Under the pieces are notes generated by a model. The model ran no database searches, had not been told where the DNA came from, and saw only the letters and a program-made list of their open reading frames with translations. Below, in pieces: positions 4,870 to 30,685 of a stretch of DNA of 64,000 nucleotides. Source of the DNA: Bacilli bacterium (GTDB taxonomy: Bacteria; Bacillota_I; Bacilli_A; RFN20; CAG-826); contig JAZQVN010000013.1 of NCBI GenBank assembly GCA_045631885.1, positions 21,242 to 85,241 on the forward strand. Direction: 5' to 3'. The translations under genes were made by a program, and so were the position numbers. The first letter of the stretch is position 1, and every line of letters begins with the position of its first letter.

Positions 4870-5217
4870 TTCAACAAGCATAGCCTTTTAAACGCGCCAG
4901 CAGCCCAAGAATGAAATACTTCTAGAGTAGGCTCCGACTGACTAAAACGTGAGAAAGTGACTAATTTATGAACTGGTAAGATGGATGTGTTAGGTCTTAC
5001 CAATGTGGAAAGTATCGCCCAGCGTGATATGCGGGCATAAGTAGAAGGGGTCGCATGGTAGACGCTCTTATGTTCAAGATGATCACCGCGCTCCACACAG
5101 TTTTATCTGAGCATGTGGCCATCACGAGGATGATGAAACACCAGTAGCTATAGTTGATAGGGATATCTTCTGTTAGTTACACTAGGTGTTTTCATTATGG
5201 TGATGGCTTTTATTATC
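4870..5217 (+). ncRNA. Candidate structured non-coding RNA of about 350 nt with unknown family. It is GC-enriched and ends in a long terminator hairpin.
   Basis: Region 4890-5110 is about 48% GC against about 25% in the flanking intergenic DNA. It contains several stems, for example GGTAAGA-13nt-TCTTACC. A long imperfect hairpin spans 5117-5210, with outer stem GCCATCAC/GTGATGGC and inner arms GATGAAACACC/GGTGTTTTCATT, and is followed by TTTTATT. A possible -10 TACAAT sits at 4857-4862. No convincing ORF is present. Confidence 0.3.
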
Positions 5218-28625: not shown

Positions 28626-29089
28626 TTAACCTCAATCAATTCATCAACATAACTTAAAACTTCTTCGCTTGGTTGTTCAAACTTTTCAAACATCTCCACG
28701 ACTACGTGATCAGGGACTCGACAGCTCTCTGGTCTGAGGTTATTGAAGTATCTACTTCTCTCTAATGTTGATGGAAACATTACCAAAACTTTTTTATCGT
28801 ACTCAGGAGAATTTTTTAAATATTTTAATCTCACTGAATTAACATCGTTAAGCGCATCTAAAATAACAGTTACGTTTTCCGCTTTTTGAGCGTATTCATG
28901 GATGCGTTTTTCAAATAAAATCCAGACTTGGTCTTGTTTAGAACGATCGTGATAATTACCACCGGTAAGTTCTAACCTAATTTCATCGCTGGAAATGATA
29001 AAAACATTCTCGTGCTCTTTTTGATATTTTAATGCCCAAGTTGTTTTACCTGATGCTGGATAGGCGCTTAAGATAATTAATGTTTTCAT
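28619..29089 (-). CDS. P-loop NTPase/kinase (AAA_33, polynucleotide-kinase-like or zeta-toxin-like fold)
   Basis: The Walker A motif is LSAYPASGKTT. It is 156 aa and has no obvious SD sequence. Confidence 0.6.
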   Translation of the reverse strand: MKTLIILSAYPASGKTTWALKYQKEHENVFIISSDEIRLELTGGNYHDRSKQDQVWILFEKRIHEYAQKAENVTVILDALNDVNSVRLKYLKNSPEYDKKVLVMFPSTLERSRYFNNLRPESCRVPDHVVVEMFEKFEQPSEEVLSYVDELIEVKW

Positions 29090-29251
29090 ATTTGGGATAT
29101 GTATATTGTATAGACAAAAATGAAGAATGAAAACAATTATTGTTTTATCTTTGAGTAGAGGGGGAGCCCCACCCTATTGAAATGCGCTCCTATTATTGGT
29201 TATAATAATATTGTTGTTGGGGCGCATGTAACCATCATGTGCCACAGTTTG

Positions 29252-29278
29252 GCTCGTCAGTGACGAGCTTTTTGTTTT
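29252..29278 (+). terminator. Plus-strand rho-independent terminator ending a candidate antisense sRNA
   Basis: GCTCGTC-agt-GACGAGC followed by TTTTTGTTTT. No plus-strand CDS lies upstream. It is preceded by GC-rich stems, for example GGGGAGCCCC. Confidence 0.55.
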
Positions 29279-29288
29279 CATCTTCAAA

Positions 29289-29363
29289 CTAGCGAGCTAG
29301 TGTCAGAATCACCATCACAACGATCAAGATTATTTTCATAATCAAGACCAGGATATCTTTCAT
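29289..29363 (-). CDS. 24-aa hydrophobic peptide MKDILVLIMKIILIVVMVILTLAR (candidate Fst/Ldr-like type I toxin)
   Basis: It is a single TM helix beginning MKD like Fst. It is preceded by an 18-aa upstream ORF (29360..29416, overlapping ATGA) with a GGAGG RBS. Its 3' end converges on the plus-strand terminated sRNA candidate. Confidence 0.35.
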   Translation of the reverse strand: MKDILVLIMKIILIVVMVILTLAR

Positions 29364-29495
29364 GGCCCACCCTTCGTCAAGGATGGGTAGGAGAGTCTCC
29401 CTATGGCGTAAACCATATTTTACCTCCTATAAATAAATAGGAAAAAATCGGCATTTTGTTGCAAAAAATCGTATTTTTTTGAAAAAAGTTTTTAA

Positions 29496-29522
29496 GCAAA
29501 AGAAAAATGCCCTTAAGGGCAT
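29496..29522 (-). terminator. Rho-independent terminator after the glycosyltransferase gene
   Basis: The minus strand reads AUGCCC-UUAA-GGGCAU followed by UUUUCUUUUGC. Confidence 0.55.
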
Positions 29523-29543
29523 CTTCCAAAATATTTTTTTAAA

Positions 29544-30482
29544 TTACCAAGGACATTTGAAATTTTTGTTATTTCTATTTTCGTAAATCTTCTCCACGAC
29601 TTCTGGTTCGGTGGCTAGATCAAATTTACGAGCGTATAGGCATGGATATTTAGGATTATAAATCTTCTTATAATCTTTCATTGTTAATAAGCGAGGGGCT
29701 TTAATCGTGTACCAGTCACAATAGAGTAACGCAGCGCCTCTAATACCTTTCACAAATAATTTGTCAAAATAAGGTGATTTCCAAATCACTTCTGCGAAAA
29801 TATGCTCATCAGCGATTAATGTATTACGATATGCATCAATGAGGTTTTCTTTTTCAATCGTCTCCACCATATATTTGGTGCATTCTTTTGTGGTTGACCA
29901 CCAGAGTAATGTGGTTGGAACTTTATGTGATTTGAAACGTTTATTTTTACCAATTGCCCAACCGAATAATGTATCTCTAATAACATCCCAGAAGGCTAAT
30001 AAGTTACGATGTTTTCTTTGCCAAGCAGTATATGGTTTAGAATGGTCTAGATATAATCTAGATCTCTTGGTCCAGTCAAATCTCACATCGATAAATTCTG
30101 TGCCTTTATGTTCTTCTAAAAATCTTTTAATTTCTTCATCTGGATATAAAGGTAAACAGCTTTCTGACACCATTGTGAAATAATCATAATCAAATTCTAA
30201 AGTGTTTTTCATTAATGAAACCGCGGCTTCACTCGTGGTGATTCCACCCCAATAAACATCAAATCTATCTTTGATGAAATGGATGTGTGGATCTTTGGAG
30301 AATTCTTCGTAGAGTTTTTGATACAACTCTTCTGACTTTTTATCAACGAGCAAGACTAGTTCATTACCATTCACATTCAATGTGTTAATTAATCGACGAA
30401 CTTGTTCGTGTTTGCTTGATAACATCATTCCATAACAAATTTTCATAATTACTTCACCTCTACATAATCGCAAGAATGACAA
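29544..30482 (-). CDS. Glycosyltransferase, Core-2/I-branching (GT14, Branch domain)-like
   Basis: It shows the architecture and motifs of the bacterial Branch family (..DVYWGGITTSEA..ESCLPL..). The assignment is by resemblance only. An alternative start at 30446 abuts the upstream stop. Confidence 0.45.
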   Translation of the reverse strand: MSFLRLCRGEVIMKICYGMMLSSKHEQVRRLINTLNVNGNELVLLVDKKSEELYQKLYEEFSKDPHIHFIKDRFDVYWGGITTSEAAVSLMKNTLEFDYDYFTMVSESCLPLYPDEEIKRFLEEHKGTEFIDVRFDWTKRSRLYLDHSKPYTAWQRKHRNLLAFWDVIRDTLFGWAIGKNKRFKSHKVPTTLLWWSTTKECTKYMVETIEKENLIDAYRNTLIADEHIFAEVIWKSPYFDKLFVKGIRGAALLYCDWYTIKAPRLLTMKDYKKIYNPKYPCLYARKFDLATEPEVVEKIYENRNNKNFKCPW

Positions 30483-30685
30483 GCGAAAAATTTATTTTTT
30501 CTTCCTCTTTTCAAAACGAGAAAATCACCGCATTTCGGGCATCTTTTATTATTCTTTAACGCTAGAGCGTTATGAATTTGATAATCGCATTTATCACAGT
30601 GATAATAGACACGGTCAAATTCATCTTTTTCTTTTATCAAGATCCCATTATGACATTTTGGACAAGAAATCTTTTCTTCATTCAT
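30449..30685 (-). CDS. Small protein with two topoisomerase-type C4 zinc ribbons
   Basis: CPKCHNG...CDKC and CPKCGDFLVLKRGRKNKFFACHSCDY match the zf-C4_Topoisom pattern. Confidence 0.55.
   Translation of the reverse strand: MNEEKISCPKCHNGILIKEKDEFDRVYYHCDKCDYQIHNALALKNNKRCPKCGDFLVLKRGRKNKFFACHSCDYVEVK

Follow-up and report, generated by a model that had tools for sequence, protein, structure and literature searches.

A candidate type I toxin-antitoxin-like locus with two overlapping small ORFs and a convergent antisense RNA gene in gut Bacilli

Small ORFs and a predicted antisense RNA gene at one locus

Here, we describe a small locus of an uncultured gut Bacilli bacterium (contig JAZQVN010000013.1, positions 21,242 to 85,241) in which two overlapping small open reading frames (ORFs) on the minus strand converge on a gene for a small antisense RNA (sRNA) on the plus strand. 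The whole stretch of 64,000 nucleotides (nt) that was analysed is referred to as the window, and positions given without a contig name are those of the window. The intergenic gap that houses the locus runs from 29090 to 29543, between two minus-strand genes. Judged by comparison with sequences from related gut bacteria, the combination of small ORFs and antisense sRNA is conserved beyond chance, and it may represent a type I toxin-antitoxin (TA)-like module. The features are collected in Table 1.

On the minus strand, a preliminary description of the stretch had reported a GGAGG Shine-Dalgarno (SD) sequence, an ORF of 18 amino acids (aa), an overlapping ATGA and an ORF of 24 aa, and all of these are indeed present. 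The two ORFs, ORF1 and ORF2, share the ATGA that contains the stop codon of the former and the start codon of the latter. ORF2 is the most hydrophobic (rank 1) of the 328 ATG-initiated ORFs of 18–40 aa in the window, with a grand average of hydropathy (GRAVY) of 2.24 against a mean of 0.14 (standard deviation 0.71). As is generally expected of type I toxin genes, it has a ribosome-binding site and is predicted to encode a hydrophobic, membrane-spanning peptide of less than 60 aa. Searches with hidden Markov models (HMMs) gave no match of the peptide in Pfam, NCBIfam (both to E 10) or PHROGs.

On the plus strand, a near-consensus promoter, identical in the related contigs L003 and L027, precedes a predicted sRNA whose start was placed from the promoter position and whose 3' end was placed from the intrinsic terminator that had been reported. 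The preliminary description had assigned a GC-rich structured segment to an sRNA of 100–130 nt. The inverted repeats of this segment are there (ATGCGCTCC/GGGGCGCAT at 29182-29190 and 29219-29227, and a GGGGAGCCCC hairpin at ~29155-29176), but the segment also holds the sRNA promoter, so it cannot belong to the sRNA as a whole and the predicted length comes down to ~66 nt. The terminator is not bidirectional, as in no lineage is it followed by a U-run on the minus strand, where CAAACUG or UGCGCGG is found instead. Since the sRNA stops 10 nt short of the ORF2 stop codon (29289-29291), it can pair only with the 3' untranslated region (UTR) of a peptide mRNA; of the antisense overlap with the toxin 3' end that had been proposed, the convergent geometry holds, but the coding region is not reached and only an inferred 3' UTR would be covered. 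Against Rfam (E to 10), the best match of either locus strand scored 23.5 bits, where the family requires 60 for gathering, and no score reached half of the gathering score of any family. A coding reading of the plus strand, namely a TTG-initiated ORF at 29177..29263 behind an AGGAGG-like sequence, was rejected because it is frameshifted between clades, with a length of 28, 17 or >50 codons in the three clades.

Table 1. Features of the locus and of its surroundings in the window, with nucleotide identity to the related contig L003 where compared
Feature	Position	Strand	Identity, window versus L003	Remarks
SD1, GGAGG SD sequence of ORF1	29424..29428	minus		7 nt 5' of AUG; invariant in five alleles
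ORF1, 18-codon leader ORF MVYAIGRLSYPSLTKGGP	29360..29416	minus	81%	frame, length and overlap kept in five alleles
ORF2, 24-aa hydrophobic peptide MKDILVLIMKIILIVVMVILTLAR, candidate toxin	29289..29363	minus	87%	five alleles, all 24 aa
Hairpin CCCAUCCUU-GACG-AAGGGUGGG, enclosing the SD-like sequence of ORF2	29366..29387	minus		inside ORF1
Structured 3' segment: GGAGC...GCUCC helix and CU-rich anti-SD-like CUCCCCCUCU	29155..29190	minus		in presumed transcript
sRNA promoter TTGAAA-18-TATAAT	29177..29206	plus	92% (promoter segment)	11/12 consensus matches
Predicted ~66-nt antisense sRNA, candidate antitoxin	29213..29279	plus	74% (sRNA body)	5' tail, hairpin H2, terminator
Hairpin H2, GGCGCAUG-UAACCAU-CAUGUGCC	29221..29243	plus		9-bp hairpin, 8-bp core stem
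Intrinsic terminator of sRNA	29251..29279	plus	53% (stem)	8-bp stem 29251-29269, T-run to 29279
A/T-rich region, expected site of peptide-mRNA promoter	29429..29501	minus		~60% identity between lineages, indels present
Intrinsic terminator of upstream glycosyltransferase gene	29502..29527	minus		11-bp stem and T-run
Core-2/I-branching-type (Branch-family) glycosyltransferase gene	29544..30482	minus		5' neighbour of locus
AAA_33/KTI12 P-loop kinase gene, 156 aa	28619..29089	minus		3' neighbour of locus

Conservation, distribution and a natural deletion allele

Relatives were found through the protein encoded by the adjacent kinase gene, first in GTDB genomes and then in a large protein collection and the contigs of its cluster members. 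Eight further contigs carry the locus, all of them from ENA gut metagenomes (ruminant gut), always immediately 5' of the same AAA_33/KTI12 kinase gene. By the nucleotide identity of this gene to that of the window, three lineages are distinguished: the window itself, L027 (86.6%) and clade B (~80%; L003, L019, L020, L023, L025 and L026). The search of related genomes that the preliminary description had proposed thus recovered the peptide ORF and the sRNA elements in two further lineages.

At this distance neutral sequence is expected to be heavily diverged, because the kinase genes of the window and of clade B are 79.7% identical in nucleotides and 41% of their amino-acid-identical codons differ. 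The flanks of the locus are 45–60% identical between lineages, with indels, and ORF1 and ORF2 together are 84–93% identical. The ORF pair occurs in five distinct alleles, and all of them keep the 18 and 24 codons and the ATGA overlap. No indel falls in the 131 nt of the two ORFs against 13 in 261 flanking columns (P(0) ~0.0015, computed by script); a recount by hand, leaving out two events found only in the deletion allele described below, gives ~11 flanking indels and P(0) ~0.004. The five peptides (MKDILVLIMKIILIVVMVILTLAR, MKKFLVLIMKIILIIVMVILMLAR, MKKLLVLIIKIILIIVMVILMLAR, MKKLLVLIMKIILIIVMVILMLAR and MKKLLVWIIKIILIIVMVILMLAR) have a GRAVY of 2.23–2.43 and differ mostly by the exchange of one hydrophobic residue for another, the exceptions being D3K and T21M; Arg24 is encoded by CGC in one clade and by AGA in another, and the variable sites of ORF2 fall seven times on the third, five times on the first and twice on the second codon position. 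Random substitution at the observed divergence left an intact ORF with a GRAVY of at least 2.0 in just 9–19% of the trials per lineage. A structure conserved without its ORF, which would have spoken against the preliminary description, is not what is found, in that ORF2 is kept in five alleles. As for ORF1, its frame is kept and its amino-acid sequence varies, which would fit a leader ORF that matters by being translated and not by what it encodes. The sRNA promoter, hairpin and terminator are also kept in all three lineages, the terminator with stem sequences that differ between L003, L027 and L021, and none of the eight peptide-bearing contigs lacks the sRNA elements.

L021, L022 and L024, three contigs each from a different sample, carry a natural deletion allele; their kinase genes belong to clade B, with 96–98% nucleotide identity to the other kinase genes of this clade. 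These contigs have lost ~290 nt, comprising the upstream region, ORF1 and codons 1–20 of ORF2. On the plus strand, they retain the promoter (TTGAAA-17-TATTAT, 10/12 matches), hairpin H2, with a compensatory change from CG to UA, and the terminator, with yet another stem sequence. The 90 nt next to the kinase gene are 94% identical to those of the intact alleles. The sRNA segment is only ~50% identical to that of intact clade-B alleles against 94–97% in the adjacent flanks, and is therefore a divergent allele and no recent wreck. If ORF2 is the toxin, the loss of the toxin with retention of the antitoxin, and no toxin-only allele among eight contigs, is what a TA module predicts. In the same allele (L021 440-723, L022, L024), 14 nt of the antisense promoter region are duplicated (ATAATAACCAATAAC-like). 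A short ATTC repeat marks its deletion junction, which gives rise to a promoter-like site, TTGACA-16-GATAGT, that faces the kinase gene.

Beyond these lineages the locus was not encountered. In the scan of GTDB genomes with the kinase, the two uncultured Bacilli metagenome-assembled genomes (MAGs) that were recovered, from reindeer and sheep gut (70% and 56% identity), are without the locus, and no trace of it is present in L004 and L013-L018, where the kinases are 76–78% identical in protein sequence and a zinc-ribbon gene, encoding 78 aa at these locus-free sites, abuts the kinase gene. The absence beside kinases of 76–78% identity indicates that the locus is an accessory element at a spot of variable gene content. 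A nhmmer search with a profile of the locus, run on the window and the other loci, found no further copies; a scan of JGI metagenomes with the conserved 18-mer GGAGCGCATTTCAATAGG gave three matches, all unrelated GC-rich chance ones; an 18-mer of ORF2 gave five chance matches and no locus in viral contigs; and blastn found no match to the locus in plasmids and phages. In an exact-protein look-up, the window kinase and the identical cluster representative P0001 had no record, and the P0123 contigs are uninformative, as they include only 37 nt 5' of the kinase gene.

RNA structure and the setting of the locus

The plus-strand RNA (67 nt) folds with a minimum free energy of –26.1 kcal/mol (z = –3.96) and exceeds its own complement in stability by 6 kcal/mol. 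In hairpin H2, all pairs of the 8-bp core stem are kept in six of six alleles on the plus strand through GC/GU/AU, CG/UG, AU/GU and CG/UA variation, with one double compensatory change, and four of these cells become A-C or C-A mismatches when read on the minus strand. Wobble pairs that exist on the plus strand only, together with the greater stability of that strand, therefore point to a real plus-strand RNA.

The minus strand is structured as well: 301 nt of it fold better than shuffled sequences (z = –4.8). In the structured 3' segment, the GGAGC...GCUCC helix brackets the –35 box of the antisense promoter and contains GU wobbles that pair on the minus strand only, which suggests that a minus-strand transcript crosses the sRNA gene; read-through of the peptide mRNA would also be expected from the lack of a minus-strand U-run at the sRNA terminator. 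In the 5' region, the hairpin within ORF1 keeps every pair in five alleles, by changes from C-G to U-G and from U-A to U-G, and a consensus fold of the five alleles places SD1, the AUG of ORF1, the SD-like AAGGGUGG before ORF2 and the AUG of ORF2 in helices. The predicted partner of SD1 is a CUCC inside ORF1 or, in full-length models, the 3' CU-rich element ~130 nt past the stop codon, which pairs with SD1 in five of five alleles. Against shuffled sequences, this pairing is significant in clade B (p ~0.002–0.006) but not in L027 (p = 0.16) or in the window (p = 0.72), and for this reason a hok-like fold-back of the 3' end on the 5' end stays a lead.

Two further observations concern these regions. 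Eight nucleotides, CCCACCCT (AGGGUGGG when read on the minus strand), form an exact direct repeat, with one copy at 29168-29175, in the 3' GC hairpin, and one at 29366-29373, in the SD-like arm that precedes ORF2; each copy is complementary to one and the same anti-SD arm, and such a repeat is about as frequent as expected by chance in a region of 456 nt. Inside ORF2, a promoter-like site lies in antisense orientation (ATCACA-17-CATAAT, 29314-29342 on the plus strand, 9–10/12 matches), with counterparts in L003 (528-500, TATAAT) and L027 (168-140), and the Met9/Ile9 polymorphism of the peptide decides whether its –10 box reads CATAAT or TATAAT. An RNA starting there would span the start regions of ORF2 and ORF1; no terminator was found for it.

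As for the setting, the terminator of the upstream glycosyltransferase gene, with a counterpart at positions 305-321 of L003, marks the border from which the small-ORF unit is independent. The 3' neighbour, which the preliminary description had recognised as a kinase gene, matches AAA_33/KTI12 and is followed by a gene for a DUF3899 membrane protein. Upstream gene content varies: in the window (29544-30685) a zinc-ribbon gene and the Branch-type glycosyltransferase gene precede the small-ORF locus, in clade B (L003 1-750) the locus comes straight after the end of an S8-peptidase-like gene, and in L004 (28-327) and L017 (1697-2001) the zinc-ribbon gene is the immediate neighbour of the kinase gene. 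The kinase genes of locus-bearing genomes have no SD sequence (window 29087-29112; L003 730-752), and an AGGAG is present in those of L001 and L004. In all alleles the kinase ATG is preceded, at a distance of 6–15 nt, by a –10-like box (TACAAT or TAGAAT), which suggests that the kinase gene is probably transcribed from its own proximal promoter into a leaderless or near-leaderless mRNA. Between this promoter and the divergent sRNA promoter, a perfect AT palindrome, AAAACAAT(A)ATTGTTTT (29130-29146; L003 ~705-720), is kept in all lineages and may serve as an operator or form a weak hairpin. Elsewhere in the window, a COG3943 RNA (RF02941) at 5087-5189 on the plus strand (89.8 bits; gathering score, 71.8) is the sole Rfam match above threshold. 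Genetic code 4 was rejected, as TGA ends four of 37 long ORFs and the long genes stay unbroken when read with table 11.

Interpretation and comparison with known type I systems

Taking together the anatomy, the conservation and the strand-specific structure signals established above, we hold with moderate confidence that the locus is a chromosomal type I TA-like module of a previously undescribed family. In this model, in which both transcripts, the coupling of the two ORFs, toxicity and the mode of repression are inferred, a minus-strand mRNA would carry a strong SD sequence, the leader ORF1 and the ATGA-overlapping ORF2 for a single-helix membrane peptide, and its structure would hide both SD sequences and both AUG codons. 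ORF2 would probably be translated only once ribosomes on ORF1 open the hairpin at 29366-29387, by a coupling of the mok/hok type. The near-consensus plus-strand promoter would yield an abundant antisense RNA of ~66 nt, and the peptide mRNA, provided that it reads through the unidirectional terminator, would have a 3' UTR perfectly complementary to the whole sRNA. The resulting duplex would trigger decay of the RNase III type, as in txpA/RatA and bsrG/SR4, and might also refold the mRNA, tightening the sequestration of the SD sequence.

Several points weigh against this model. No sigma-70-like promoter (at least 9 of 12 matches) for the peptide mRNA was found on the minus strand of the window, L003 or L027, nor a canonical minus-strand terminator between ORF2 and the kinase gene, and for this latter reason the ends of the peptide mRNA, and hence its overlap with the sRNA, are assumed. 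The sRNA does not overlap ORF2, and the energies of its duplexes with the translation initiation region (TIR) are no better than those of shuffled controls in five alleles. The peptide is without a charged tail, and no toxin family in Pfam, NCBIfam or PHROGs matches it. Of the 19 ORF2 codons with identical amino acids in the window and clade B, only one differs, whereas the share in the kinase gene is 41%, so that part of the constraint on ORF2 would act at the nucleotide or RNA level, and dN/dS, the ratio of non-synonymous to synonymous divergence, is ~0.5 by a rough estimate from five alleles. Only three lineages with the locus are known, with one copy per locus. Finally, the sRNA structure is kept in the allele that has lost the peptide gene, which suggests that the RNA may work independently of the peptide.

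The alternative that survives best, although we consider it unlikely, is that ORF2 encodes a non-toxic small membrane protein, for example a modulator of the nearby DUF3899 product, with the antisense RNA either tuning it or being unrelated to it. A conserved hydrophobic ORF2 that is always found beside the kinase-DUF3899 pair would agree with such a role, as would a peptide without a charged tail or any similarity to known toxins (Pfam, NCBIfam) and the persistence of the sRNA where the peptide gene is deleted. However, most relatives with the same kinase-DUF3899 pair have no peptide gene, which makes this gene dispensable for them, and the sequestration of two SD sequences and two AUG codons, the leader ORF and the strong convergent antisense promoter are hallmarks of a silenced toxin (PMC4147584). 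Decidedly doubtful is an explanation by RNA alone, either as a structured sense/antisense pair or as a standalone trans-acting plus-strand sRNA, ORF2 being an untranslated by-product of a U-rich RNA. The near lack of synonymous divergence in ORF2, unlike in the kinase gene, indicates a constraint on nucleotides that would suit this explanation, and so would the strong conserved structure of both strands and the compensatory changes that maintain the sRNA even without ORF2. On the other hand, it leaves unaccounted for the perfect GGAGG at ideal spacing from ORF1, the conserved ATGA overlap, the freedom of both ORFs from indels, the CGC/AGA swap at an Arg codon, the conservative hydrophobic substitutions and the rank of ORF2 as first of 328 in hydrophobicity; neither strand matches an Rfam family. 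Very improbable is a third alternative, in which the entire minus-strand region serves the kinase-DUF3899 operon as a long cis-regulatory leader that contains upstream ORFs, and the plus-strand RNA is an antisense brake on it: this would account for the missing minus-strand terminator between ORF2 and the kinase ATG, for the constant position immediately 5' of the kinase gene and for locus-bearing kinase genes without an SD sequence where L001 and L004 have AGGAG, but the element is absent beside kinase genes of 56–78% identity, the deletion allele drops the ORFs while its kinase-proximal 90 nt stay 94% identical, and all alleles have the –10-like box 6–15 nt 5' of the kinase ATG.

If the type I TA-like module is confirmed, it would be a new family of toxin and antitoxin RNA in a poorly studied, uncultured and genome-reduced branch of the Bacilli; it would indicate that leader coupling as in the enterobacterial hok/mok can coexist with a 3'-overlapping antitoxin of the Bacillus type, and the occurrence of intact beside toxin-deleted alleles in gut metagenomes would offer a natural system to study the decay of such modules. 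No earlier description of the locus was found in the literature searched; lineage-specific type I TA candidates turn up regularly, and for this reason the finding is incremental and its novelty modest. The practical value is modest too, consisting in better annotation of small ORFs and sRNAs in MAGs and possibly in a compact regulatory part. A bolder version of the model would see here an undescribed type I TA family confined to one uncultured clade of ruminant-gut Bacilli, with three stacked layers of silencing that are not known together in one system (leader-ORF coupling, 5'-3' anti-SD fold-back and a 3'-UTR antitoxin), a 24-aa toxin among the shortest of the Gram-positive lineage and a polymorphism of intact and orphan-antitoxin alleles in natural populations; to this whole set of claims we give little credence for the time being.

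Among known type I systems, the proteobacterial Ibs/Sib and ShoB/OhsC of E. coli have peptides of 18–26 aa that are almost purely hydrophobic, and Sib spans the whole ibs ORF. By this general description only, the very short and nearly all-hydrophobic ORF2 peptide is like them. The par system (fst/RNA II) of pAD1 shares with our locus, by prediction in our case, a toxin mRNA and an antisense RNA of similarly small size that converge on a terminator hairpin, the location of this hairpin downstream of a gene for a membrane peptide of ~30 aa and a 5' stem-loop that hides the SD sequence (PMC7472228). Of the preliminary description, the general idea of a type I TA-like locus is supported, in that the peptide ORF and the promoter, hairpin and terminator of the antisense sRNA proved to be conserved in three lineages; kinship with Fst did not stand. 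In particular, the MKD start that had been likened to Fst is MKK in every other allele, and membership of the Fst/Ldr family, which is characterised by a PXXXG motif, a Trp residue and a charged C-terminus (PMC7472228), was rejected because MKDILVLIMKIILIVVMVILTLAR has none of the three, DRa/DRb-type direct repeats, the basis of antisense complementarity to the toxin TIR in that family, are missing, the only repeats being short and at chance level, the terminator is unidirectional, and Pfam and NCBIfam give no match at E to 10. A Trp residue occurs in one allele only (L7W in L020), inside the helix.

The resemblance to hok/mok/Sok, a system of plasmid R1 and enterobacterial chromosomes, lies in the leader ORF that overlaps the toxin ORF and would fit an obligatory translational coupling, hok translation being dependent on mok (PMC4147584), and possibly in a 5'-3' fold-back that hides the SD sequence (PMC3834814), a pairing that here exceeds shuffled sequences in the clade-B alleles but does not do so in the window. 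The target of Sok is the TIR of mok, on the 5' side; our antisense gene lies 3' of ORF2 without complementarity to the TIR; moreover, there is no Hok homology and the host is Gram-positive-derived. In Bacillus subtilis, the overlap of ~75 nt at the 3' end of txpA/RatA, without complementarity to the TIR (PMC4147584), and the 3' overlap of bsrG/SR4 drive RNase III decay (PMC4147584, PMC3834814), and SR4 has a dual action, since it also tightens the sequestration of the SD sequence (PMC3834814). Searches of Pfam, NCBIfam and Rfam gave no homology of toxin or RNA to TxpA/BsrG or RatA/SR4, with TxpA and BsrG not compared directly, and the differences are a peptide of 24 aa where TxpA has 59 aa (PMC4147584), a much shorter sRNA of ~66 nt than RatA or SR4 and an extra leader ORF. 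Common to these systems and our locus are the convergence of a gene for a small membrane peptide with an sRNA gene, here at the level of the genes, and a location in a region of variable gene content; as in txpA/RatA, complementarity would involve only the 3' end of the toxin mRNA and neither its coding region nor the TIR (PMC4147584), and as in bsrG/SR4 the toxin SD sequence is predicted to lie inside a helix (PMC3834814). By analogy, then, the regulatory geometry of the locus appears closest to that of txpA/RatA and bsrG/SR4, with the addition of a leader ORF like that of hok/mok.

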